Origin: Nitrosomonas europaea
GTDB taxonomy: Bacteria > Pseudomonadota > Gammaproteobacteria > Burkholderiales > Nitrosomonadaceae
Assembly: GCF_900167395.1 (NCBI RefSeq)
Contig: NZ_FUWK01000008.1
Coordinates: 1 to 32,000, forward strand
Direction of reading: 5' to 3'
DNA: 32,000 nucleotides
The notes beneath the pieces are model-generated. The model worked only from the letters and a program-made list of their open reading frames with translations. It had not been told where the DNA came from and made no database searches. The position numbers and the translations under genes were made by a program. Positions 1 through 11,392 of the stretch are shown here, piece by piece. Every line of letters begins with the position of its first letter. Position 1 is the first letter of the stretch.

Positions 1-2
1 CA

Positions 3-182
3 TTCCGGCGCAAGATTTACCAGTCCATTGAAGAGTTACAACACGATCTGGATGATTGGATGGCGTACTACAACAGTGTGCGGACTCACCAGGGAAAAAT
101 GTGCTGTGGACGCACCCCGATGCAAACTTTAATTGACGCAAAGGAGATATGGGACGATAAAATTACCGAATTGAATAACTGA
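3..182 (+). CDS. C-terminal 59 codons of a DDE (rve / integrase-core) transposase. The 5' part lies outside the window.
   Basis: Frame 3 is open from the window edge. It reads FRRKIYQSIEELQHDLDDWMAYYNSVRTHQGKMCCGRTPMQTLIDAKEIWDDKITELNN followed by TGA at 180-182. The YN..R.HQG...TP tail is typical of rve-domain (IS481/IS3-type) transposases. Confidence 0.7.
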   Translation, partial: FRRKIYQSIEELQHDLDDWMAYYNSVRTHQGKMCCGRTPMQTLIDAKEIWDDKITELNN

Positions 183-183
183 A

Positions 184-229
184 TCTGATCTAACAGGCAC
201 TCGTCAAATCGGGTAACTGTCAGATCAGA
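184..229. repeat. Imperfect hairpin directly after the transposase stop codon.
   Basis: TCTGATCTAACAG (184-196) pairs with CTGTCAGATCAGA (217-229). That is 12 of 13 positions complementary, with a 20-nt loop. Confidence 0.6.
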
Positions 230-273
230 TCTCAACTACTACAATTTATTACTGACTTTATTATCCGGCTACA

Positions 274-425
274 TGTGTAATAACCTGCATTCAGCAAGAT
301 TTTGAGCCAGCAATAACTACATCTATCCACCCCTGCAAACCAGCATTAACTGCAAATGAACCTGCACTTATTCCTATCGACCTGCATTTGATCTTCACAA
401 ACCGACAATAACTGCGACTGACAAA
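274..425 (+). repeat. Array of five phased, degenerate direct repeats with a period of about 32 bp and core AATAAC-(C)TGCA. It resembles an iteron array or a set of transposase-binding sites.
   Basis: Cores are at 279-284 AATAAC, 312-317 AATAAC, 345-350 ATTAAC, 376-381 ATCGAC and 407-412 AATAAC. Spacings are 33, 33, 31 and 31 bp. Each core is followed by CTGCATT, TACATCT, TGCAAAT, CTGCATT or TGCGACT. The array begins with TGTGTAATAACCTGCATT. Confidence 0.6.
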
Positions 426-454
426 ACATTCATTACCTACCTATATAATTAACA

Positions 455-580
455 GAATGTCATTCTGTGCTATACCCTAACCTGATGTCAGGATACGTCA
501 CGCATAAGCGTCAGAATAGGGTTTGCATGGCAATTAATTGACATTTCTAATCAAAAGTAATAGATTTCACTCTGACACAT
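455..580 (+). promoter_or_regulatory. Tn21/Tn1721-type res (resolution) site upstream of tnpR.
   Basis: Resolvase half-site-like motifs: TGTCA at 458-462 and 486-490, CGTCA at 496-500 and 509-513, TGACA at 539-543 and 573-577. The strings TACCCTAACCTGATGTCAG, GCGTCAGAATAGG and TTAATTGACAT closely match my recollection of Tn21/Tn1721 res. The position immediately 5' of tnpR is canonical. Confidence 0.65.
538..566 (+). promoter_or_regulatory. Putative tnpR promoter embedded in the tnpR-proximal res subsite.
   Basis: TTGACA (538-543), a 17-nt spacer, then TAGATT (561-566). GGAG at 590-593 lies 5 nt before the TTG start at 599. Confidence 0.45.
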
Positions 581-598
581 ATTACTTTTGGAGTTAAC

Positions 599-1159
599 TT
601 GCCAGGTAAGCGCATTGGTTATGTTCGGGTCAGCAGCTTTGACCAAAATCCTGAACGGCAACTGGAAGGCATTCAGGTTGATCGCGTGTTCACTGATAAG
701 GCATCGGGTAAAGATATCCAGCGACCACAACTCGATATGTTGCTGGATTTTGTGCGTGAGGACGATACAGTCGTCGTCCATAGTATGGATCGCCTGGCAC
801 GCAACCTAGATGACCTGCGTCGTCTGGTACAAGATCTTACCGGTCGTGGTATCCGAGTCGAATTTGTCAAAGAAGGATTAATTTTTACCGGTGAAGATTC
901 TCCGATGGCCAACCTGATGCTGTCGGTCATGGGATCTTTTGCGGAGTTTGAGCGTGCTCTGATCCGCGAACGGCAGCGCGAAGGTATTACACTTGCCAAA
1001 CAGCGAGGTGCCTATAGGGGTCGCAAGAAATCGCTGAACAGCGAACAGGTTGCGGAATTAAAGCGAAGGGTCGTAGCAGGCGAACAAAAAGCGCTCATCG
1101 CCCGCAGCTTTGGTATCAGCCGCGAAACGCTTTACCAATATCTGAAAACAGTAGATTGA
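599..1159 (+). CDS. tnpR: Serine recombinase of the Tn3-family resolvase type (Tn21 subgroup-like TnpR), 186 aa, with a TTG start.
   Basis: The translation PGKRIGYVRVSSFDQNPERQLEG...VVVHSMDRLARNLDDLRRLV...SPMANLMLSVMGSFAEFERALIRERQREGI...GRKKSL...FGISRETLYQYL shows the catalytic Ser motif (YVRVSS), the resolvase core and a C-terminal HTH. No tnpA follows, so the gene is an orphan. Confidence 0.9.
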   Translation: MPGKRIGYVRVSSFDQNPERQLEGIQVDRVFTDKASGKDIQRPQLDMLLDFVREDDTVVVHSMDRLARNLDDLRRLVQDLTGRGIRVEFVKEGLIFTGEDSPMANLMLSVMGSFAEFERALIRERQREGITLAKQRGAYRGRKKSLNSEQVAELKRRVVAGEQKALIARSFGISRETLYQYLKTVD

Positions 1160-1197
1160 AAAGCCACGCCATATTGATTGTGCGTCTGAATCTCGTT

Positions 1198-1236
1198 GAA
1201 TGCAGGTCGGATCATTTATAAATGCAGGTTGTTACA
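1198..1236 (+). repeat. Two adjacent copies (22-bp spacing) of the AATGCAGGT site, in the opposite orientation to the 274-425 array. The outer copy forms a 16-bp inverted repeat with 276-291.
   Basis: GAATGCAGGTCGG at 1198-1210 and AAATGCAGGTTGTTACA at 1220-1236. The reverse complement of 276-291 (TGTAATAACCTGCATT) is AATGCAGGTTATTACA, which matches 1221-1236 at 15 of 16 positions. Confidence 0.65.
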
Positions 1237-1333
1237 GGTATGAATCGAGAGATTCACGTACCGTTGCGTGAGAGCCCGAGGATGAAATTCCCTTGGGCTA
1301 CTCGACCAATTATAACTTTATCTGCCACCGGTT

Positions 1334-1993
1334 TTATTTATTTGAAATTATTCCTCTGGCTTTGAGTGAAACTAAAGCCTTTTTAAGTTCTTTCTCGGTT
1401 AACTTGCCATTCAATTCATTGTTTAAGTCATCAATGTTCGGCCATGCATGTCCATATGCGTTGAGGAAATCCTCTTTTTCGTAAGCTCTATAGTCCACAA
1501 TGATTGGCCTTCTCTCCAAAATATATATGGTCTCAAACACCATTTTTTCATCAGGATCTTCTATTCTTTCATATGCTAATACTATTGATTTTATAAATTC
1601 CCACCCTGCGATGCCGGGCGCAATCCACGCCAAGGGTCCTGTAATAGGTGTTAAAGCATAACCTGCGGCGACAATTCCTAGAAATTTAAGTAGGCCGTCT
1701 TTGGAGGCTTTACCAAGTTTATATACACAAAATTGGCGCAGTCGAAAAGCAAGTAGATAATCTTCTCTTGGTTGGGTTATGTAATTTGTTTGAAAAACTC
1801 CTGCTAATGCGCGATGAGTTTCGTTTTCTATTTTGTAATTGCTGCTTAATTCTTTTATAAGATCTAATTCCAACATTACTTTTGACTGCAATGGAATTAT
1901 TTCTGTGAATGAAGACAATGCCGATGGTATGTCAGTATTAAACACCCATTCTTCTGAATTAACGAGGGCATAGGCTTGCATAGTAGAAATCAT
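1334..1993 (-). CDS. Hypothetical protein, 219 aa, AT-rich orphan with a central hydrophobic hairpin (two probable TM helices).
   Basis: It is the only long ORF in a visibly AT-rich block. The hydrophobic stretch is LLKFLGIVAAGYALTPITGPLAWIAPGIAGWEFIKSIVLAY. I recognise no family motif. No clear Shine-Dalgarno precedes the ATG at 1993. Confidence 0.6.
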   Translation of the reverse strand: MISTMQAYALVNSEEWVFNTDIPSALSSFTEIIPLQSKVMLELDLIKELSSNYKIENETHRALAGVFQTNYITQPREDYLLAFRLRQFCVYKLGKASKDGLLKFLGIVAAGYALTPITGPLAWIAPGIAGWEFIKSIVLAYERIEDPDEKMVFETIYILERRPIIVDYRAYEKEDFLNAYGHAWPNIDDLNNELNGKLTEKELKKALVSLKARGIISNK

Positions 1994-2005
1994 TTTTTTG
2001 TTAAC

Positions 2006-2030
2006 TGTCTTTTTCAGAATAGGATTGCAC
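2006..2030 (+). repeat. Tn402-family-like 25-bp terminal inverted repeat (IRi-like, degenerate).
   Basis: TGTCTTTTTCAGAATAGGATTGCAC matches the remembered IRi TGTCGTTTTCAGAAGACGGCTGCAC at 20 of 25 positions. Confidence 0.65.
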
Positions 2031-2073
2031 TAGGGTCTGTTGACATTTCGCTCTAAGTTCTTGCACTAGAAAA

Positions 2074-2121
2074 GAAAACTCGTATTGTAAAAGCTCTCAC
2101 ACCGTCACGATACGAGTTTTC
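2074..2121. repeat. Perfect 12-bp inverted repeat (hairpin) ending 1 nt before the IS5-like ATG.
   Basis: GAAAACTCGTAT (2074-2085) and ATACGAGTTTTC (2110-2121) with a 24-nt loop. Confidence 0.7.
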
Positions 2122-2122
2122 A

Positions 2123-2389
2123 ATGCCCCGTTAACTGCTCAGCGACGAGCATTGGTCGAAGCTGCGTAAGATTTTGCGGCAGATGGCCATCTATGACAAG
2201 CCCGATCTACGTCTGACCGTCGAGGGTATGCTCTACCGTATGCGGGTAGGCTGTCCCTGGCGAGACCTGCCCGAGGCATTCGGCTACTGGAACAGCATCT
2301 ACAAACGCTTCAATGCCTGGTCTGCTGCAGGCAAGTGGGTCAACCTGTTCAAGGCGCTGGTGGTTGAACCTGAAATGCAGGTCGCATAG
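2123..2389 (+). pseudogene. IS5-family (DUF4096-type N-terminal domain) transposase remnant. It has a premature stop at codon 4 and lacks the C-terminal DDE domain.
   Basis: It reads MPR*LLSDEHWSKLRKILRQMAIYDKPDLRLTVEGMLYRMRVGCPWRDLPEAFGYWNSIYKRFNAWSAAGKWVNLFKALVVEPEM..., with TAA at 2132-2134. Family-like sequence stops near 2375, where an AATGCAGGTCG repeat begins. Confidence 0.8.
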
Positions 2390-2411
2390 GCATAATTGCG
2401 ACTGACTGAAG
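2373..2411 (+). repeat. A further copy of the AATGCAGGT / AATAACTGCGACTGAC repeat family, located at the truncation point of the IS5-like ORF.
   Basis: AAATGCAGGTCG (2373-2384) equals the reverse complement of 378-389. CATAATTGCGACTGAC (2391-2406) resembles CAATAACTGCGACTGAC (406-422). Confidence 0.6.
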
Positions 2412-2499
2412 ATTATTTACAGACGCATAAACTAAACTGAATATCATATTCTGAGGCCACCTATACAGCCAATTGAGTGCTATCAAGTTCTGATATTTG

Positions 2500-2524
2500 G
2501 TGCAGTCGTCTTCTGAAAATGACA
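2500..2524 (-). repeat. Tn402/Tn5053-family 25-bp terminal inverted repeat (IRt-type), with its outer end at 2524.
   Basis: The plus strand reads GTGCAGTCGTCTTCTGAAAATGACA. Its complement TGTCATTTTCAGAAGACGACTGCAC is, as far as I recall, identical to the IRt of Tn402 / class 1 integrons. Confidence 0.75.
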
Positions 2525-2924
2525 ATATCTAGCGGGAAGATCATGTCGAGATGGCGCATATTCCCGCTATTGATATTACCCGGTACACCGTCGATCAACA
2601 GCTTGATGCCGTTGATGTAGCCTTCGCCGTTGAAGGCGCGGAAGGAGGGCTTGCCGGATTCGGCGCCGAGACGGAATTCGGTCGACTGTATGCCGGGCAT
2701 CTGGCCGATCAATTCCCAGCTGTTCATCACGTTTTTGTCCTGCACACGCTCGGCACCCATTACGTCGACCGAAGTCAGGATGCTGCGTGTTGGCAAGGAG
2801 CCGGTGTTGCCGGAATTGACCGTCACTTCCCCCAGTACGACCATTGACTCCTGTGCCTGAGCGCTGGACAGCGCCAGGGCAATCAGCCAGACGAGCCGGC
2901 TGGGTTTGAATCCGGATTTTTCAT
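2525..2924 (-). pseudogene. 5' fragment of a second TonB-dependent receptor gene (signal peptide plus part of the plug domain). It is truncated by the Tn402-type end and frameshifted in an A-run near the start.
   Basis: The translation ...SGFKPSRLVWLIALALSSAQAQESMVVLGEVTVNSGNTGSLPTRSILTSVDVMGAERVQDKNVMNSWELIGQMPGIQS...FRAFNGEGYINGIKLLIDGVP...LDMIFPLD is plug-domain-like. It loses similarity at 2524/2525. The ATG at 2924-2922 is one nucleotide out of frame with the body; the A5 run is at 2917-2921 (T5 on the plus strand). Confidence 0.75.
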
Positions 2925-2995
2925 TGAGCCAGCCGATGCGCCATACGTGTGCTGGACTTCTGTCGCCAGTCGAAATATCGTGTGCCGATCTGATT

Positions 2996-3328
2996 TCACT
3001 GCTCCTGTTCTGGTACGTAGATCATCGAACCATCCTTGAGGCGAAAAGCTGTTCCGGCTTTGGTGCCTTCTCCTTCTCCGATCTGTCCCGTGGATTTGTA
3101 ATGTTTCAGTTCCTCACCTTGTTTAATGATCATTTCCATGGATGGTTTGCCGGGATCCTTGATGATCACCGCGTCCTGCAGCGTGAACGGATTGAGCGGG
3201 TTTTCCATCACTGCGATCAGCAATACGGCGATGATCACGAGAAAGACATCGATGATATTGACGACACTGAGGATCGGATCATCTCCATCTTCATCTTCCA
3301 GGATTGAAAGCGATCTGCGCTCAGCCAT
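2996..3328 (-). CDS. ExbD/TolR-topology single-pass membrane protein (DUF2149-like), 110 aa.
   Basis: MAERRSLSILEDEDGDDPILSVVNIIDVFLVIIAVLLIAVMENP... consists of an acidic N-terminus, one TM helix and a soluble C-terminal domain, as in ExbD. Its ATG (3328-3326) overlaps the upstream stop within ATGGCTGA, which suggests translational coupling. An alternative ATG is at 3340. Confidence 0.7.
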   Translation of the reverse strand: MAERRSLSILEDEDGDDPILSVVNIIDVFLVIIAVLLIAVMENPLNPFTLQDAVIIKDPGKPSMEMIIKQGEELKHYKSTGQIGEGEGTKAGTAFRLKDGSMIYVPEQEQ

Positions 3329-3830
3329 GAACGACTCCATCCAGGTGAGTGGGTACTTCATGTGAACCGAGGATATGCTCGAGTTCCTCCAGCAACCAGC
3401 GCCGACGGATAGTGAGCACGAAATACGATAGAGAAGCCGTGAGCAGGGCAATGATTACTGCAGAAAAGGCGACGATCAGGCTTTCGGCCATTCCTTGCGC
3501 ATTCCCTGCAGATACCGCAACAAGTGCGGGACCCATTGGAATCATGGTAGCCACCAGCCCGAGCATCGGAGCAACCCGGCTGGTGATGCGCAAAGGCTCG
3601 ATCAGACGGAGCAGTTGCAGCTCCAGCATTTCCTGGGTGGCGGCCGGATGAGCATGCATAAAGAGGACGAGTGGCTGTCTCTGCCTGCTGCCGACAGTAC
3701 GCAGCAATGTATCCATCAGCAGAGTGCCTGCAGTAAACAGGGCATAGATAAACATCAGGCCAAGCACGATCAGGACGGGTGTCAGAAACAGCCGGGAGAT
3801 TTCATAAAATAATGATTCAAGCGCATTCAT
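3321..3830 (-). CDS. MotA/TolQ/ExbB-family proton-channel protein (short form), 169 aa.
   Basis: It has three hydrophobic helices. The segment RITSRVAPMLGLVATMIPMGPALVAV...ESLIVAFSAVIIALLTASLSYFV is typical of the ExbB/TolQ C-terminal core. It sits between the CobN-like and ExbD-like genes. Confidence 0.75.
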   Translation of the reverse strand: MNALESLFYEISRLFLTPVLIVLGLMFIYALFTAGTLLMDTLLRTVGSRQRQPLVLFMHAHPAATQEMLELQLLRLIEPLRITSRVAPMLGLVATMIPMGPALVAVSAGNAQGMAESLIVAFSAVIIALLTASLSYFVLTIRRRWLLEELEHILGSHEVPTHLDGVVHG

Positions 3831-3866: not shown

Positions 3867-6800
3867 TTAAGAAAGTTTCAAGCCGGAGAATGCCTGCCGT
3901 TCCCGGTAGGTGCGCCAGGACTGGTAGACAGCGCCTGCAGCGATGATGCCGATGAGCAGCCAGGCATAATTCCACAGGATTTCTTCGATCATTGGCTGAA
4001 CAGGGGTCTCGACCATTTGCTGGCCGCGTACGATGTCCGCAGTCTGTTGTGGTTCAGGTTGTGGATTGGCTTGGCTTTCAACAGGGGTATCGGGGGTATT
4101 CAGACCATAGCCGGCTGCCAGTTCAGCGACATATGCTTTGAAAGTGGCGTTGTCGGTCTGGATATCATGGCGATTTGCGATGTCGGTATAGACCTCGACC
4201 AGTTCGCGTCTGGTCTGTTCGCTTGCTTCCCAGTAATCCTTGCGGATAGCTTCCAGCATGCGTTCAGCGATCTGGGCCAGCGCGGCAGGATTCGATTTCT
4301 CGAACCAGTCACGCATGTCGAGGTTATAACGGTCGGCAATATAGCTCTGGTGAAATTCCTCCCATTGATCATCCCGGGTGATATTACGATCCATGACCTG
4401 CCATCCCCAGAAGTTGTTGATCGTATCGAGCATCTGCAATGTTCCGGAATAGCCTTCTTTCTGCATTTCCCTGATCCAGTTCGGGTGCTGGTAAACCGCA
4501 CGCAATTCCCTGGCCATGAATTTTTCTGCCGACTCAAGCCTGGCGCGTGCCGGATCGCGCAGATTGGAAATATAGAGTTGCGGGCTCGTCCCATCCAGAT
4601 GCCGTACTGCCATCGATATTCCTCCCAGATATTCGAATGGATGATCCGTATCGAGCAGGCCGCGCAGGTTGGATGAACGTGAAAACACTGCAGCACTCGT
4701 GCCGCGCAGATGTTCCGCGTAGGCGTTTATTTCGTTTCCTTTGCCATCGGTAAGTTTCTGGCTCCAGTGTGCCGGGTTCGGCCCGTAAGCCCAGGACATG
4801 CGTGACAGATAGAGGTTCTCGAGCTTGCCGTCCTTCTCGTCCCATTTATCCGAAGCCAGAGTGGCTTGGGTCAGGCGTGTGCTGTAGTCACCACTTTCAT
4901 TGCCAAAAATACGTGTCAAGGCAAATTCCCTGGCCGTTTCAGGTGTTACTCCCAGCTTCTTCAGTTGTGCCCGGATACGCCGGGTATTGGCACGTATGGG
5001 GTTGTCACTGTCGGGTTCGTCCTGTTCAGCCAATAGTGTGATTGCCTGGTTGAATCGTTCCATTACATTTGGAAACTGGTCACGATACAGTCCGGTCAGT
5101 GAAATGACCGTATCGATACGGGGACGCCCCAGCTCGCTCAGGGGAATGACTTCCATACCGGTTACCCGCCCGCCCTCATCCCATACAGGTCGCACACCCA
5201 TGGCATAGAATATCTGTGCCTCGAGCATGCCGAGATGGCGCATGGTTTCAGTGCTCCACATCGAGAAGGCGAGTTTTTCCGGAAATTTGTCGTGCGTGAG
5301 TTTGTAGCTGGCAATCAATTGTTCGACTGCCTGCCCGCCCGCTTCATAAGCCGCACGAGTGGGGACTCTTCCAGGGTCGAATCCGTACATGTTGCGGCCG
5401 GTCGGCAGTGCATCCGGGTTGCGGATCGGGTCTCCACCATACGAAGGATCGATCCAGCGCGATGATAATCCTTTTACGATTGAATCGATTTCCGGGGCTG
5501 CGTGCAGATTCATGCGAAATGTGCGGCCGCGTTCAGCCATCGCTCGCAATCCGGGATCGTTGATATCGTTCAGTGGCTGATCGGAGAAGACATACGTCTC
5601 AACGAAACGATAGGGTTCGGATTGCTGAATTTTGCGGTAATCTTCGCGCAGCAGAGTGCGGGCATCTTCGATACCCAGCAGATCGTAGAGGGGTTGCCCG
5701 AGCATCTGCATGACGTTGCTGATCTGATGAGCCTGTTCCGCATCGCGTCCGAGAGTATGCAAACCCAGTGGCTGCTGGGCTGTCCCGAGATCTTCGAGAT
5801 AATCTTCGATGTCCCGCAAAAAATTGTCGAAATTTCGTTCCAGATCAGCGACTTTCCATTGCATATCCTGATGGATATTCATTCTGACTGCCTGCTCGAT
5901 GATCAGCTTGCGGTTATTGTCGCGCACCAGGCCTTGATCCAGTGACTGGTATTCCCGGATCAGGTCATTGAGCCGGACGAAATCATCGGAGAGACCAGCC
6001 GGAGAAAAGGCAGGCGTCTGATGGCTGATGATGACCCCGCGTCCCCGGCGTTTGACGTGAATGGCCTCGCCGATGTTATCCACGATATAGGGATAGATCA
6101 CCGGCAGGTTGCCAACCAGAATGTTGGGATAGTCATACGCCCACAGACCGCGCTCTTTCCCCGGTGTCCATTCCTGGGTACCGTGTGTGCCAAAATGTAC
6201 GATGGCATCGGCGCTGAATTGTTCGCGTATCCATAAATAGCTGGCGAGATAGGCGTGCCCGGGAGGTTGCCGGGTATCGTGGAACAGTTTCTTTTCTTCT
6301 TCCATACCCGCCATTTCGCCGCGTGAAGGCTGCGGCATCACGACCAGATTGCCCAGTTGCATACGCGGAATCACGAATCCATTTACGCTATCCTTGTGCG
6401 CAAGCCACACGCTTTCTTCCGGATTTCCCCAGCGAGCTTCGATGTCATTTCGCACCGATTCCGGCAAGGTTGCATACCACGCGCGATAGCGGGCAAGCGG
6501 GAGGAAATCCCAATGCGGGGTGCGCATCAGTTCCGGAATACCGCCAGCACGATAGGCTGGTCGCAGCATCTGTCCGACCGTATCGATCATTTGTTGTTCG
6601 GTTACGGCTTCAAAGGCATAGCCTTCCGAACGCAGATGTTCTACCAGATATTCAAGTGACCTGGGTACGTTCAGATTGGAGGCTCCCTGGTTTTTCTCAC
6701 CAGGGGGATGATTCCAGAACAGCAAAGCGACACGTTTATCGGCATTGGCCCTGAGGCTGAGACGTGCCAGATTGATAGCTTTGCCGACCAATAGATCCAG

Positions 6801-8009
6801 CTGTTCCGGCAGAGGAACGAATTCTCCACCTTCGTTGGTAGTGAGTACGACCGGGTCCTGCAATCCGATGTATTCGGCGGTAGTCAGCGTAAAGGGAACG
6901 AAGTAGCTGCCGATCCCGGCGCTGTCCTTCAGATAGTCGGTGCGTGTACCGCCGCGGTAGGAAAGGACATTGATAGCCGGTATACCGAGTGCCTGATGCC
7001 ATGCCTTGCGGTTTTCCGGAGCGCTGCCAAGGAAAGTATTGACGAGTATGACCTGCGGGATGATTTTTCCCTGATAGGTGATGAGCGGCTCATCGATTGT
7101 GATATTCCGACGTTCGGCAGGATTCGGGAAATCGGCACTTCCGCGTGGCTGAACGATATCAACGGGATTTTCCCGGGAGTTGTCTGCTCCGGCGCCGGCG
7201 GATCCTCTTTCGCCAAAACCTCGGTTGCCAGTTGCCCCGGGTCGCCTGTTAGATTCATTGGAACCCGATACCTGCACGGTTGACCCGCGTGATATGCGCG
7301 TGCTGCGGTAAAACACGAGCGGCAATGCGCCTGCCTGCTCCAATGCCGACACGACTTCGTCCAGCATGCGTGTCTGTCCGTCGGCGATATAGGTGGAAGG
7401 GATTTCCATGGCGATCACCGGTCTTTCCAGTGCAGGGTCTGCCATCTGTTTTTCCCACCAGTTCAGATACTCGGGCAGTGTCGGAAAAATACTGTCGGCA
7501 TGCCCCGGGTGATAAATGCCACCATCAGGAAGATCTGCCGGGGGTGGTACTTCGCTCAGATCACCTCCCTGCATCCAGATGCGCAGATAATGAAAAAGCC
7601 TTTCCCGGTTCACTTTCTGGCCGGCTACATAATAGCCGTAGAGTCGTTCGGCAATTTCCGGTGCCAATCGTATCGGGCTGATCTGGCCGCCGAAGGTTTG
7701 AAAGGTGACGACAGGTACAGCAGTTTCGCGCAGCAGCTTGCCGGCGATATGTTCGATTTGTGCCTGATCTTCGGCACGGGGAGCATCGATGATGACCAGC
7801 CGTGCTTCTGCCAGTGCCTTGCGCACTCCCTCTTCACCTTCCCGGTCTGCTTGTACCCAGTGCAGATCGATCCCCGAGCCCTCCGAAGCAGCTTGCATCA
7901 GACGGAACTTGTGTTCCAGGACGAACTGGGTCGACAACAGGGCGACCTTGTGTGCAAAAGCGGCAGGGGCTAGCAGTATCAGTGTGATCAGGAGAAATAT
8001 TCGTTTCAT
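3867..8009 (-). CDS. CobN/ChlH (Mg/Co chelatase large subunit) family protein, 1380 aa, with an N-terminal signal peptide and a C-terminal TM anchor.
   Basis: Family motifs VHFGTHGTQEWTPGKE and DALPTGRNMYGFDPGRVPT are present. The N-terminus MKRIFLLITLILLAPAAFA-HK looks like a Sec signal. The C-terminus WLLIGIIAAGAVYQSW-RTYRERQ looks like a membrane anchor. The ORF is open back to 8066, but the ATG at 8009 gives the signal peptide. Confidence 0.85.
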   Translation of the reverse strand: MKRIFLLITLILLAPAAFAHKVALLSTQFVLEHKFRLMQAASEGSGIDLHWVQADREGEEGVRKALAEARLVIIDAPRAEDQAQIEHIAGKLLRETAVPVVTFQTFGGQISPIRLAPEIAERLYGYYVAGQKVNRERLFHYLRIWMQGGDLSEVPPPADLPDGGIYHPGHADSIFPTLPEYLNWWEKQMADPALERPVIAMEIPSTYIADGQTRMLDEVVSALEQAGALPLVFYRSTRISRGSTVQVSGSNESNRRPGATGNRGFGERGSAGAGADNSRENPVDIVQPRGSADFPNPAERRNITIDEPLITYQGKIIPQVILVNTFLGSAPENRKAWHQALGIPAINVLSYRGGTRTDYLKDSAGIGSYFVPFTLTTAEYIGLQDPVVLTTNEGGEFVPLPEQLDLLVGKAINLARLSLRANADKRVALLFWNHPPGEKNQGASNLNVPRSLEYLVEHLRSEGYAFEAVTEQQMIDTVGQMLRPAYRAGGIPELMRTPHWDFLPLARYRAWYATLPESVRNDIEARWGNPEESVWLAHKDSVNGFVIPRMQLGNLVVMPQPSRGEMAGMEEEKKLFHDTRQPPGHAYLASYLWIREQFSADAIVHFGTHGTQEWTPGKERGLWAYDYPNILVGNLPVIYPYIVDNIGEAIHVKRRGRGVIISHQTPAFSPAGLSDDFVRLNDLIREYQSLDQGLVRDNNRKLIIEQAVRMNIHQDMQWKVADLERNFDNFLRDIEDYLEDLGTAQQPLGLHTLGRDAEQAHQISNVMQMLGQPLYDLLGIEDARTLLREDYRKIQQSEPYRFVETYVFSDQPLNDINDPGLRAMAERGRTFRMNLHAAPEIDSIVKGLSSRWIDPSYGGDPIRNPDALPTGRNMYGFDPGRVPTRAAYEAGGQAVEQLIASYKLTHDKFPEKLAFSMWSTETMRHLGMLEAQIFYAMGVRPVWDEGGRVTGMEVIPLSELGRPRIDTVISLTGLYRDQFPNVMERFNQAITLLAEQDEPDSDNPIRANTRRIRAQLKKLGVTPETAREFALTRIFGNESGDYSTRLTQATLASDKWDEKDGKLENLYLSRMSWAYGPNPAHWSQKLTDGKGNEINAYAEHLRGTSAAVFSRSSNLRGLLDTDHPFEYLGGISMAVRHLDGTSPQLYISNLRDPARARLESAEKFMARELRAVYQHPNWIREMQKEGYSGTLQMLDTINNFWGWQVMDRNITRDDQWEEFHQSYIADRYNLDMRDWFEKSNPAALAQIAERMLEAIRKDYWEASEQTRRELVEVYTDIANRHDIQTDNATFKAYVAELAAGYGLNTPDTPVESQANPQPEPQQTADIVRGQQMVETPVQPMIEEILWNYAWLLIGIIAAGAVYQSWRTYRERQAFSGLKLS

Positions 8010-8145
8010 GTATCTGTTGTCATGTACAAAGAATGTAAATCGGTTACCGCCATCAGATTGATACATTCCATGCCGTCCCGGACCAATTGGCTGTAAGTGG
8101 TTTCTGCTGATAGGAACGTGTCGTCATTTGGCTGGATGCCGTGTG

Positions 8146-10419
8146 TCAGAATCGCAAATTGACTTGCGCGACATAGTTGCGGCCAGTACTGATCAGCGAT
8201 TGGAAATAGCGCTCATTCAGCAGGTTGTTTGCGGCAAAGCTGAGCTCGGCCATTTTGTTCCAGGTATAAATGAGTTTGGTATCGAGCAGCCAGAAAGCCT
8301 GATTTCCCCCGTAAACATTGTGAAAGACATCGATGTTTTCTGCGGTATTGAAGGATTTTGATACATGACGGCCGGTCAGGCTGCCTGACCAGTCGTGCCA
8401 GTTGGTTTCCAGCCCGGCAGTCAGGATATGTTTAGGGCTGTTTGGCATCCGTTTGCCTTCGGAATCGGGGCTGGCGCTGTTTTTCAGTGTTCTGGCGGTT
8501 GGCGTCCAGGTATAGTTGGCGTGGAGCTTGAGCCAGCCGGTCAGTACCTGATCGACCGAGAGCTCGATTCCGCGTGTGATCCCTGTCCCTGCATTGACAT
8601 CGGTCGCTTCCCGCAGGGTAGTGGTAAATGTCAGATTTTTTGAAGTAATGAGATCGAACAGGCGGTTTTCAAAGAAAGTGGCCTTGAGCCGGGTGCCGGT
8701 TGCAGCCAGGTGTTGTTCGATGCCTGCTTCCCAGGAGAGTGCGGTTTCAGGTTTCAAACTGGCATTGGCATAATTTATGACAACTCCTCGTCTGGAATCG
8801 GCAAACATATCCTGCAGTGTCGGCGGGCGGAATGCGCGTCCGGCCGAGGCACGCAGTACTCCGCCTTGCCAGGGTGCCTGATACACCAGTGCAAGTTTCG
8901 GGCTGATTTCAACGACTGACTGTTTTTCGGTAGGTTTGACCACGCCAGTCTGCAGATTCCTGCTTTTCCCTTCAGCCGTCCACCAGTCCAGTCGTGTGCC
9001 AAAGTAGGCGGTCAGACGATCGGTCAGAAAGATTTCATCCTGAACAAAAAATGATGTAGTCAGGCTTTCCGAGTCGCCGGTGAGGTTGAGGGCGGTGCGA
9101 GAATCGATGTCCTGCCAGTTGCTGAGTGTGTATTCACGCCGTTTTAACGTGCCATGTTCAACTTGGAATCCGGTGGTGAGAAAGTGACGGTCGCCGAGAT
9201 GAAACGAATACATTCCCTGGCCGTTGATCAATTGCTGGGGGCGGTGTGCGGAGGTGCCCGGGCCACCATCGAATGTGGAATTCTGTCCGACCAGGGTTGA
9301 CCAGTAACCGCGCGACAGGTGATTGAAGCTCAGTGAAAATTTGGAATGATTGGCAAATTCATGTTCGAAATCCAGAAAGCTGCGCAGATCATCTTCGTGG
9401 GTTTCGGCATTCAGAAAAAGTGAAGGAGTGATTCGGCCCAAGATTGTTCCACCAACATTGACTGTGCCGCTGATAACCGTATTGCCGCCGGGATCACGCA
9501 GATATGAGGTCGGATTTTCCGATCTGACATCAGAAAAAAGGTAGCGCAATCCGCCCGAGATGCGGGTAGTCGGACTGAAATCATAATAAGCTTTGATTTG
9601 TCCGACATGGTAATTCCACGGCACGTTGCCACGATCTCCGATCTGGAAAGTGGGTGTACCATTGGTAGTGTGCGTCGGGATTGCACCGGTGACGCGAGTG
9701 CCTTGCGGACCTGCCTGATTGGTAGCCGGATCGCTGAAAGACCAGCTGTCCCTGTAGCCACTGCTCGTTTCATAGCGATAGCCGATGCTGATGGCTAGCC
9801 CGTTATCGAAAACATCACGATAAACTGCGCTGCCGTAGCCACTTTCAGGTGAATTGAACTGGTAGCCGCCAGTCAGCGAAATTTCTTTTTCGGTTGGCTT
9901 CTTTGAAACCACCCGGATGACACCGGCAAAAGCATTGCCGCCATAAAGCGCAGAAGCAGCACCCGGAATGACTTCGATGCGTTCGATATCTTCCGGAAAC
10001 AGGGTAGCCCAGTTGAAGGTTCCGAATGCGGGGTCGTTCATTTTCTGGTTGTCCAGCAAAACCAGCGTTCTTGAGACACCTGAGACTCCGCGGATCGAAA
10101 TACGGTTGCCGCGATTTGCCGAGGGCGCCTGGCTGCCCTGACTGGCTCCCCAGATATAGACGCCTGGTGTTTCCTGCAGGATGTCACCGGCACGGCGTAC
10201 GTTGCGTAACCGGATTTTTTCTTTGTCGAACAGGTGCAATGTGCCGGGAATTTCTTCGATGGATTTATCAGAGAGTGTGGCTGAGATGACCATGGGATTG
10301 AATACGACAGGTTCATCTTTCTTTTTGGAGATACCTGCTTCGTGTGCAGCGTACAGAGCGTTGGGAGATAACGGCAGTGTGAGGTTTGAAACGAGGAAAA
10401 TACAGGCGGTTTTCTTCAT
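8146..10419 (-). CDS. TonB-dependent outer-membrane receptor, 757 aa.
   Basis: Evidence: a signal peptide MKKTACIFLVSNLTL...ALYA; a TonB-box-like NPMVISAT; plug motifs (IPGTL..., ISIRGVSG.RTLVLLDN, IERIEVIPGAASALYGGNAFAGVI); and a beta-barrel ending in ...YVAQVNLRF with the terminal Phe. The ORF also allows a TTG start at 10428. Confidence 0.9.
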   Translation of the reverse strand: MKKTACIFLVSNLTLPLSPNALYAAHEAGISKKKDEPVVFNPMVISATLSDKSIEEIPGTLHLFDKEKIRLRNVRRAGDILQETPGVYIWGASQGSQAPSANRGNRISIRGVSGVSRTLVLLDNQKMNDPAFGTFNWATLFPEDIERIEVIPGAASALYGGNAFAGVIRVVSKKPTEKEISLTGGYQFNSPESGYGSAVYRDVFDNGLAISIGYRYETSSGYRDSWSFSDPATNQAGPQGTRVTGAIPTHTTNGTPTFQIGDRGNVPWNYHVGQIKAYYDFSPTTRISGGLRYLFSDVRSENPTSYLRDPGGNTVISGTVNVGGTILGRITPSLFLNAETHEDDLRSFLDFEHEFANHSKFSLSFNHLSRGYWSTLVGQNSTFDGGPGTSAHRPQQLINGQGMYSFHLGDRHFLTTGFQVEHGTLKRREYTLSNWQDIDSRTALNLTGDSESLTTSFFVQDEIFLTDRLTAYFGTRLDWWTAEGKSRNLQTGVVKPTEKQSVVEISPKLALVYQAPWQGGVLRASAGRAFRPPTLQDMFADSRRGVVINYANASLKPETALSWEAGIEQHLAATGTRLKATFFENRLFDLITSKNLTFTTTLREATDVNAGTGITRGIELSVDQVLTGWLKLHANYTWTPTARTLKNSASPDSEGKRMPNSPKHILTAGLETNWHDWSGSLTGRHVSKSFNTAENIDVFHNVYGGNQAFWLLDTKLIYTWNKMAELSFAANNLLNERYFQSLISTGRNYVAQVNLRF

Positions 10420-10451
10420 GATAAACAAGTCGTTGTTGAATTCTTTTTTTC

Positions 10452-10481
10452 ATTATTGTGTTTAACGCGTTGTTTGATCAA
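10452..10481 (-). promoter_or_regulatory. Putative sigma70 promoter for the TBDR/CobN-like operon.
   Basis: On the minus strand: TTGATC (10481-10476), an 18-nt spacer, then AATAAT (10457-10452), about 30 nt upstream of the ATG at 10419. The -35 overlaps the outer end of the 21-bp repeat. Confidence 0.35.
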
Positions 10482-10498
10482 TGTGACAAATTGTCGCA
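10478..10498. promoter_or_regulatory. Left copy of a perfect 21-bp inverted repeat that contains a 17-bp near-palindrome (operator-like).
   Basis: TCAATGTGACAAATTGTCGCA is the exact reverse complement of 10622-10642. The internal palindrome is TGTGACAA-A-TTGTCGCA, with 7 of 8 symmetric pairs. Confidence 0.7.
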
Positions 10499-10621
10499 GC
10501 CAGGGCGTCTGCAGCATTTCCTGAGGCAAATTTCAAGGTCATCGACGGATGAACGGGGAGTCTTTACGGGTCGATAATTGCCTTGCAGCTGTGGGGAATG
10601 TATGAGGGTTCGATATGCCAA

Positions 10622-10642
10622 TGCGACAATTTGTCACATTGA
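10622..10642. promoter_or_regulatory. Right copy of the perfect 21-bp inverted repeat (operator-like).
   Basis: TGCGACAATTTGTCACATTGA. It lies 123 bp from the left copy, and its outer TTGA runs into a TTGACC -35-like hexamer. Confidence 0.7.
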
Positions 10643-10666
10643 CCCTGAATCGGAAAAAAATAGAAT
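10639..10666 (+). promoter_or_regulatory. Putative sigma70 promoter facing rimP.
   Basis: TTGACC (10639-10644), a 16-nt spacer, then TAGAAT (10661-10666). Confidence 0.35.
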
Positions 10667-10894
10667 ATTTATGATCGATTTCGAGGCAGTACAGGAGTTG
10701 CGATATTGCTGTTTCGATTTCGTTGTCTGAAATTTTGAAAATAAATGACTTTATCCGTTTGTGTAAGGATATTGGTGCATCTGTTTATGTTGATGGGATA
10801 AACTGTATATCAGTGGATTTTTGAAGAGAGGTTTTGATAACCTATTGGAAACATTGGTGTAATATAAATTTCTGTTTTTATGAGTTGCAATTCT

Positions 10895-10903
10895 TGCTAT
10901 AAT
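10895..10903 (+). promoter_or_regulatory. Extended -10 promoter element upstream of rimP.
   Basis: TGCTATAAT fits the TGnTATAAT pattern. It lies 58 nt before the rimP ATG, and AT-rich DNA lies upstream. Confidence 0.45.
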
Positions 10904-10923
10904 GGCAAGCATGGTTTTGAGGG

Positions 10924-10949
10924 TGGGCTGGTTAGCCCATTTTTTATTT
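10924..10949 (+). terminator. Intrinsic-terminator-like hairpin plus T-tract in the rimP leader (possible attenuator).
   Basis: TGGGCT-GGTT-AGCCCA (6-bp stem, 4-nt loop) is followed by TTTTTTATTT. It ends 11 nt before the rimP ATG. Confidence 0.5.
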
Positions 10950-10960
10950 GTGGTGAGACT

Positions 10961-11392
10961 ATGTCATTGTTTGAGCTGCTCGAACCAACGATTGCGGGCA
11001 TGGGATACGAGCTGGTCGATATCGAGCAGTCTGCTCCTGGCAGGTTGTTGCGGGTATTTATCGATAAAAAAGAGGGATCGATAACGCTCGACGACTGTGT
11101 TGCTATCAGTAATCATTTGAGCCAGTTGCTGGCAGTCGAGAATATCGATTATAACCGGCTTGAGGTTTCTTCTCCGGGTCTGGATCGGCCATTGAAGAAA
11201 AAGGCTGATTTTGTTCGTTATATGGGGGAATCGGCGCGGATCAGGCTGCGAATCGCCTTGCAGGGGCAAAGAAATTTTGTGGGAACACTGGTCGAAGTGA
11301 ATGATGATGTCCTGACATTGAATGCTGATGGAAAATTGTTGCAGATTGAATTGAGAAACCTGGAAAAGGCTCGGCTGATTCCAAAATTGTGA
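10961..11392 (+). CDS. rimP: Ribosome maturation factor RimP, 143 aa.
   Basis: [22 protein letters not shown]...[14 protein letters not shown]... matches RimP, and the gene lies immediately upstream of nusA. The internal ATG was chosen over the ORF-track start at 10880. Confidence 0.9.

Follow-up and report, generated by a model that had tools for sequence, protein, structure and literature searches.

What does a perfect 21-nt inverted repeat do between two divergently oriented operons of an ammonia-oxidising bacterium, and which protein would read it? The repeat occupies positions 10478–10642 of a 32,000-nt stretch of Nitrosomonas europaea DNA (positions 1–32,000 of contig NZ_FUWK01000008.1, forward strand; the whole stretch is referred to below as the window), between a gene for a TonB-dependent receptor (NE0758), which faces left, and rimP (NE0759), which faces right; locus tags are those of N. 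europaea ATCC 19718 (AL954747.1), to whose proteins the flanking products are exact matches. A preliminary description of this DNA had proposed two divergent promoters, each with a dimeric operator and both controlled by one regulator, with a small mobile element or the closing helix of a leader RNA as alternatives. Comparison with related loci indicates that the repeat consists of two outward-pointing box–promoter units forming a conserved regulatory element between the receptor operon and rimP, and we infer that the boxes at this divergent promoter pair are probably bound by a response regulator of the RegA/PrrA/ActR family.

The left arm, TCAATGTGACAAATTGTCGCA (10478–10498), is the exact reverse complement of the right arm, TGCGACAATTTGTCACATTGA (10622–10642), with 123 nt between them, and the pair is the longest perfect inverted repeat in the window with a loop of at most 300 nt, the longest in 100 shuffles of the window measuring 10–14 nt. 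Inside each arm lies the 17-mer TGYGACAAWTTGTCRCA, a near-palindrome with seven of eight symmetric pairs, which has two matches in the 32 kb, both of them in the arms, even when up to three mismatches are allowed (shuffle expectation 0.33). The perfect repeat with its 123-bp spacer and the near-palindrome in each copy, both given in the preliminary description, are thereby confirmed. The repeat stands 58 bp from the ATG of NE0758 and 318 bp from that of rimP, and the consensus of the 17-bp box is TGCGACAATTTGTC(G/A)CA. The parts of the element are as follows, L160 being a metagenomic locus that carries an ortholog of the receptor.

10482–10498, minus strand: Box L, TGCGACAATTTGTCACA as read on this strand, a 17-bp near-palindrome and putative RegA-type dimer site of the receptor promoter
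10476–10481, minus strand: -35-like hexamer TTGATC, abutting Box L, its first four bases being the outer end of the arm; identical in L160
10452–10457, minus strand: -10-like hexamer AATAAT, 18 nt past the -35 hexamer; GATAAT at the same spacing in L160
10499–10621, no strand: spacer of 123 bp between the boxes, in which no conserved feature was found; sequence unrelated in 18 other loci
10622–10638, plus strand: Box R, TGCGACAATTTGTCACA, putative RegA-type dimer site of the rightward promoter
10639–10644, plus strand: -35-like hexamer TTGACC, directly abutting Box R
10661–10666, plus strand: -10-like hexamer TAGAAT, 16 nt past the -35 hexamer

Outward-facing -35-like hexamers with -10 elements at 16–18 nt had been noted before, and a promoter scan reproduced both, with 10 of 12 sigma-70 consensus matches for the plus-strand promoter, the only one of its kind found on that strand within 10300–11100, and 9 of 12 for the minus-strand promoter. 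Transcription is predicted to start near 10445 to the left, leaving about 26 nt to the ATG of NE0758 at 10419, and near 10673 to the right, about 288 nt upstream of the rimP ATG. The association of box and promoter was examined in 50 sites within one mismatch of the box, taken from related loci and the window, by scoring a sigma-70-like module that starts at the very next base beyond each box end. Such a module abuts the box (offset 0) in 44 of the 50 sites if the strand read has T as the central base of the box (TGCGACAA-T-TTGTCGCA) and in none of the 50 if it has A, against a background of 1.6% at random positions in the same DNA; examples following the box include TTGACA-17-TAGACT, TTTGCA-17-TACAAT and TTGTTA-17-GATAAT. 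Given this dependence on orientation, each box is a directional unit fused to a promoter: a 17-bp dyad, a -35 hexamer at the next base, 16–18 nt, and a -10 hexamer, the window arms being two such units pointing outward. The 21 nt of an arm are then made up of the 17-bp box and the four bases (TTGA) with which the -35 hexamer begins, and the divergent arrangement of two units explains the perfect complementarity without duplication or transposition.

In these units the dyad centre lies about 44 bp upstream of the predicted start, and a site upstream of and abutting the -35 hexamer suggests activation as the sign of the regulation. The same class of position is held by phage lambda cI at OR2, a 17-bp dyad that touches the -35 hexamer, is centred near -42 to -44 and allows the activator to contact sigma region 4; the protein family is unrelated. 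CRP and FNR recognise TGTGA-N6-TCACA and TTGAT-N4-ATCAA, respectively. A CRP/FNR site was considered and rejected, as the box reads TG(C/T)GA-N7-TC(G/A)CA, with N7 in place of N6 and GCG, not GTG, in its commonest form; the preliminary description was right in holding that the motif is not that of Fur, Zur, NikR, LexA or CRP/FNR. Separately, a stretch overlapping the -10 element of the receptor promoter (10439–10457, minus strand; AATAATGAAAAAAAGAATT) matches about 12 of the 19 positions of the classical Fur box by eye, which hints at possible additional iron control of this promoter.

A scan for two boxes 108–138 nt apart, covering one genome for each of 185,579 species, the source genome, presumably masked, not being among the matches, returned 19 stretches, one per genome except for one metagenome-assembled genome (MAG) with two. 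They belong to Nitrosomonas species and MAGs, four Methylococcales/Methylothermaceae genomes, a Cycloclasticus, several gammaproteobacterial MAGs and one betaproteobacterial MAG; the boxes are near-perfect copies of TGCGACAAWTTGTCGCA, and the sequence between them is unrelated from lineage to lineage. Among close relatives the arms are identical at 41 of 42 positions and the interior at 96 of 123 (78%). Box L is conserved in L139, L159, L161 and L160, with the same consensus as the 50 sites in related loci. L160 was obtained by a metagenome search with the receptor protein and encodes an ortholog 78% identical to it. Both units are retained there, the receptor-side arm exactly, its TTGATC included and GATAAT further on, with the second box 65 bp away across an unrelated 48-bp spacer in place of the 123 bp of the window, so that the palindrome is conserved upstream of an orthologous operon, as the preliminary description had asked of an operator. 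Opposite the receptor/CobN operon in L160 (L160:1001–2500), the divergent gene, under the second box, encodes a PepSY_TM membrane protein instead of RimP; PepSY_TM proteins beside TonB-dependent transporters have been tied to the copper supply of haem-copper oxidases in Bordetella (PMC13038864, PMC12914433). Boxes were absent from more distant receptor homologs in metagenomes (27–35% identity). With 19 recurring loci and 44 of 50 abutting promoters, the earlier reading of one regulator at two divergent promoters gains support.

Centre-to-centre distances between boxes across loci are 65, 126–131 (11 loci), 133, 135, 137–140, 148, 155 and 167 bp, which amounts to a preferred spacing (126–131 bp) but no strict helical phasing; DNA looping between the two window sites is thus speculation, and no claim is made for it. 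Two observations concern L161, a 95%-identical strain: its receptor-side box carries one mismatch (TTTGCCACA), so the repeat is not perfect in every strain, and about 35 bp directly downstream of the rightward promoter (window 10672–10710) are absent from it (L161:2100–2200).

The genes beside the boxes differ between organisms. In other Nitrosomonas and in gamma- and betaproteobacterial MAGs, the pair lies between a gene for a fused major facilitator superfamily/spermidine synthase protein and a conserved operon encoding a secreted protein of about 260 amino acids (aa), a 150-aa protein, a TlpA-like redoxin, a DUF4266 protein and a His/Met-rich DUF3570 protein. Single boxes with the abutting promoter module stand before redoxin genes in two MAGs and before an unrelated receptor gene in N. 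halophila, while the Cycloclasticus pair lies ahead of a receptor gene whose best model, under its cut-off, is the TonB-dependent copper receptor. The box-linked genes include, in all, two further and unrelated TonB-dependent receptors. Envelope proteins for metal or cofactor handling are the common theme. The secreted protein, whose gene opens the box-controlled operon at many loci (L140, L145, L146, L151, L152 and gammaproteobacterial MAGs; alignment A1), has His as its predicted first mature residue, four invariant Cys and two invariant Trp, and no match to it was found in Pfam, NCBIfam or PDB sequences, a profile search included; as a guess, it may be MopE/CorA-like. In N. halophila, an IS605 OrfB/TnpB-type gene (L155:2082–2828) lies between the box pair and a third box.

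Which protein reads the box is suggested by its neighbours in methanotrophs. At 4 of the 19 loci, the boxes directly adjoin genes for a kinase with a PilS-like domain of six transmembrane segments and a 180-aa regulator with a receiver and a Fis-type helix-turn-helix (HTH) domain, and two further regBA loci, on a Methylococcus-type contig (L157; boxes with 2–3 mismatches, 135 bp apart) and in Methylomarinovum, both have two boxes just upstream of regB, so that regB-regA-like genes immediately adjoin boxes in six methanotroph loci in total. The best NCBIfam models for these genes are ActS/PrrB/RegB and ActR/PrrA/RegA, close relatives are named RegA by JGI and NCBI, and the regulator shares the recognition helix MHRRTLQRKL with PDB 3RQI, a 184-residue response regulator with a receiver and a Fis-type HTH (160 bits). 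Beside regBA, a candidate small RNA was noted at five loci (L142:3340–3478, minus strand; L143:4285–4423; L147:2275–2435; L158:2470–2641; L157:2325–2469), where a box–promoter unit that points away from regB, the one nearest regB in four of them and the distal one in L157, would transcribe it; it would measure 70–100 nt, with an invariant, anti-Shine-Dalgarno-like UCCUCCUC, a hairpin GCAGGGAG...CUCCCUGC and then a U-rich tail, and has no Rfam match.

The box itself also resembles published sites of the family when compared by hand with their consensus strings in the form quoted in PMC5506826. The PrrA consensus of Rhodobacter sphaeroides, YSCGGC-N5-GWCRMA (Eraso and Kaplan 2009, via PMC5506826), agrees with the window arms and with the consensus box, TGCGAC-AATTT-GTC(G/A)CA, at 11 of 12 positions and has the same N5 spacing. 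The RegR consensus of Bradyrhizobium japonicum, GNGRCRTTNNGNCGC (Emmerich et al. 2000, via PMC5506826), agrees with the consensus box GCGACAATTTGTCGC at 10 of 11 positions and with the window arms at 9 of 11. As quoted there, the RegR box spans 15 bp as an imperfect inverted repeat whose half-sites read GCG(A/G)C, and inverted half-sites of this type at the published spacing are what the window box presents; putative RegR boxes with the half-site TGCGAC are listed in PMC4064962. RegR sites are often paired upstream of target promoters, as here, whereas the window dyad is almost perfect, has a T/A extension at each end and holds a fixed position abutting the -35 hexamer; the RegR host belongs to the Alphaproteobacteria, while the hosts here are Beta- and Gammaproteobacteria. 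A similar difference applies to PrrA, for which chromatin immunoprecipitation (ChIP) sequencing in R. sphaeroides gave no strong motif and earlier proposals of variable-length spacers are cited (PMC4263372), the box here being nearly invariant in both sequence and spacing.

Among the Gammaproteobacteria, Methylomonas sp. DH-1 belongs to the same guild as some of the box-carrying methanotroph loci, and to their order (Methylococcales), and provides a case of RegA-family control of a TonB-dependent receptor: on deletion of regA, expression of a TonB-dependent receptor gene, tonB-exbBD and feo fell to 3–23% of wild type, and ChIP located RegA at the feo promoter, no DNA motif being defined (PMC13274454). 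Acidithiobacillus ferrooxidans RegA binds upstream of the -35 element of most of its targets without competing with RNA polymerase, and passes from dimer to tetramer on DNA, although no motif was found by the authors among the targets (PMC5506826); with respect to the predicted promoters, a location upstream of the polymerase site is likewise seen in 44 of the 50 box sites, both window arms among them, and tetramers on DNA would be compatible with two boxes acting together.

A mechanism can be outlined on this basis. A dimeric regulator of the RegA/PrrA/ActR family, composed of a receiver and a Fis-type HTH domain and phosphorylated by the quinone/redox-sensing kinase RegB, would bind each box about 44 bp upstream of each start, touching the -35 region; binding would co-regulate the leftward promoter of a putative outer-membrane metal or haem uptake operon (NE0758, NE0757, an ExbB-like gene and a DUF2149 gene) and the rightward promoter, which would now read into the long rimP-nusA leader. 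The two dimers may cooperate.

Could the same paired operator–promoter unit be read by some other factor, such as a metal-responsive regulator, Fis, or another Fis-type or phage-type HTH protein, with RegA merely a neighbour or a target in methanotrophs? We regard this as rather unlikely, but several observations lean towards it and weigh against a RegA-type reader. The methanotroph genes score under the curated NCBIfam cut-offs (196 against 250 bits and 204 against 350), so that the occurrence of a RegA-family regulator and RegB in the same genome, found in the box-carrying methanotroph loci, carries that reservation; both units there point away from regB, which makes the boxes neighbours of regBA without demonstrating simple autoregulation; and the 10-kb stretches flanking the window contained no regB or regA gene. 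The published sites of the RegA family are degenerate, and a good match to them is therefore weaker evidence than a match to a sharp motif would be. In Methylomonas DH-1, RegA was not detected by ChIP at the receptor or tonB promoters (PMC13274454), and NE0758 and NE0757 show weak expression in published chemostat cultures, with 21.5 and 13.1 transcripts per million under ammonia and oxygen limitation, a difference that is not significant. The target genes look metal-related. Finally, the 17-mer box occurs in at least 120 stretches, at no fewer than 138 sites, of uncultured viral contigs in IMG/VR (L018–L137); among the matches listed, TTGA follows in 26 of 115 central-T readings and 0 of 111 central-A readings, which is the same orientation rule, no clear -10 element was found at 16–18 nt, and a hidden Markov model search found no RegA-like HTH in the fetched stretches, so that another protein family may read the box. 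The viral box often takes the form TTGACACAAGATGTAG, sometimes in tandem (e.g. L032:8789, L095:6150, L100:1726 and L125:2118); in the GenBank phage collection, a 33-nt query returned only a weak 24-nt match (92% identity, E = 4) in an Ochrobactrum phage, and the viral occurrences are thus confined to uncultured contigs. What favours the RegA-type reader nonetheless is that the box fits two independently published consensus strings of the family, as quoted, with the same half-site spacing; that adjacency to regBA is kept in six diverged methanotroph loci, including the degenerate Methylococcus copies; that no other regulator gene recurs beside the boxes in the 19 loci; and that the strongly conserved GCGAC half-sites are not Fis-like. 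Searches for further links returned little: with the methanotroph RegA as query, a search for homologs retrieved only methanotroph-like proteins, the names regA, prrA and actR do not occur in the supplementary gene tables of PMC6967387, and literature searches, whether for N. europaea RegA or for the text of the box, brought up no paper.

The remaining explanations dispense with a regulator altogether, and both are highly improbable. On one of them, the segment is a 165-bp element resembling a miniature inverted-repeat transposable element (MITE), with 21-bp terminal inverted repeats and outward promoters brought in by chance; its perfect ends and MITE-like size fit, and remnants of mobile elements lie nearby (a resolvase gene at 599–1159 and, further left in a sister strain, insertion sequence (IS) and RES-toxin genes). 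Yet the arms have no direct repeat on their outer sides, the sequence being ...TTGTTTGA (ending GTTTGA) on the left and CCCTGAAT... (starting CCCTGA) on the right, which bears out the earlier observation that a target duplication is lacking; there is no multicopy family, the two-box scan having given a single locus per genome (two in one MAG) and about 52 kb of N. europaea DNA containing no further copy; the interiors of different lineages bear no relation to one another, and the L160 boxes stand 65 bp apart around a different spacer; single boxes with the same promoter module stand alone at other genes; and the supposed terminal repeat is fully accounted for by the box and the first four -35 bases. 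In the other explanation, the arms pair to close a structured leader RNA or riboswitch of the receptor/CobN operon or of rimP. Operons of TonB-dependent receptor and cobN genes are often under cobalamin riboswitches, and the fold of a 181-nt segment has a z-score near -4 on both strands, but the low energy stems from the 21-bp stem itself, and each arm is itself a dyad, as expected of a protein site. Rfam scans of the whole window at the gathering score and of 10380–11000 at E ≤ 10 gave only a tRNA and noise-level matches, leaving no riboswitch or known leader over the repeat and no covariance-model match over 10478–10642; the interior is unconserved and replaced in L160. As the predicted promoters fire outward from the arms, the segment would also lie in neither transcript. 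Neither alternative in the preliminary description has held up. The genes on either side of the paired site are listed here.

8146–10419, minus strand: NE0758, TonB-dependent receptor with Pfam Plug and TonB_dep_Rec barrel domains, first gene of the leftward operon
3867–8066, minus strand: NE0757, CobN-type chelatase subunit, second gene of the operon; Pfam CobN-Mg_chel, NCBIfam NF004644 at 2128 bits against a cut-off of 1248
3321–3830, minus strand: MotA/ExbB-like gene; MotA_ExbB at 22.5 bits, slightly below cut-off
2996–3451, minus strand: DUF2149 gene; DUF2149 at 98 bits
10893–10950, plus strand: two hairpins in the rimP leader, the second (10919–10944) followed by a T-run; terminator- or attenuator-like
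10961–11392, plus strand: rimP (NE0759), first gene of rimP-nusA-infB, downstream of the rightward unit

For NE0758, the best NCBIfam model is the haem/haemoglobin receptor subfamily, with a score under the cut-off, and the protein has no close kinship to any receptor of solved structure. Left of the operon, window positions 1–3000 are low in GC (0.40–0.44) and contain the resolvase gene and an isolated TonB-receptor plug fragment (2461–2844), and the corresponding region of a sister strain (L197:1–10000) carries genes for IS transposases and a RES toxin; the whole has the look of a mobile region in decay. A PepSY_TM remnant was looked for in the window and none was found. On the other side, the leader hairpins are almost invariant in L139 and L161, give a weak match to the gammaproteobacterial rimP leader of Rfam (18.5 bits, where the gathering score is 47) and probably form an attenuator of the NusA type. 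According to published chemostat data, oxygen limitation raised rimP 2.6-fold and nusA 2.1-fold and did not raise infB, a pattern compatible with a redox-activated rightward promoter followed by attenuation, and far from proof of it.

By kind, the element is an ordinary transcription-factor site; what it offers is an unusually sharp candidate motif for the RegA-type family. The RegA/PrrA/ActR proteins are global redox regulators whose DNA target has been hard to define (PMC4263372, PMC5506826, PMC13274454), and if RegA recognises the 17-bp dyad in Beta- and Gammaproteobacteria, ammonia oxidisers and methanotrophs, in which genetics is difficult, would have regulons that can be read from their genomes. 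In N. europaea, redox control would then extend to the uncharacterised receptor/CobN-like operon for uptake and perhaps to the rimP-nusA leader. The motif points to a regulon shared by ammonia and methane oxidisers, and we suggest tentatively, as a doubtful but possible extension, that a RegB/RegA box-plus-promoter cassette controls outer-membrane and periplasmic genes for metal or tetrapyrrole acquisition in both guilds and in related Gammaproteobacteria. Such a regulon would comprise TonB-dependent receptors, the CobN-like chelatase, the PepSY_TM reductase, the DUF3570, DUF4266 and TlpA-like proteins and the secreted protein with N-terminal His; through it, the supply of cofactors to the ammonia and particulate methane monooxygenases and the respiratory oxidases would be tied to the quinone pool's redox state; the cassette would also drive the anti-Shine-Dalgarno small RNA beside regBA in methanotrophs; and uncultured phages would borrow it as a promoter that senses the state of the host.

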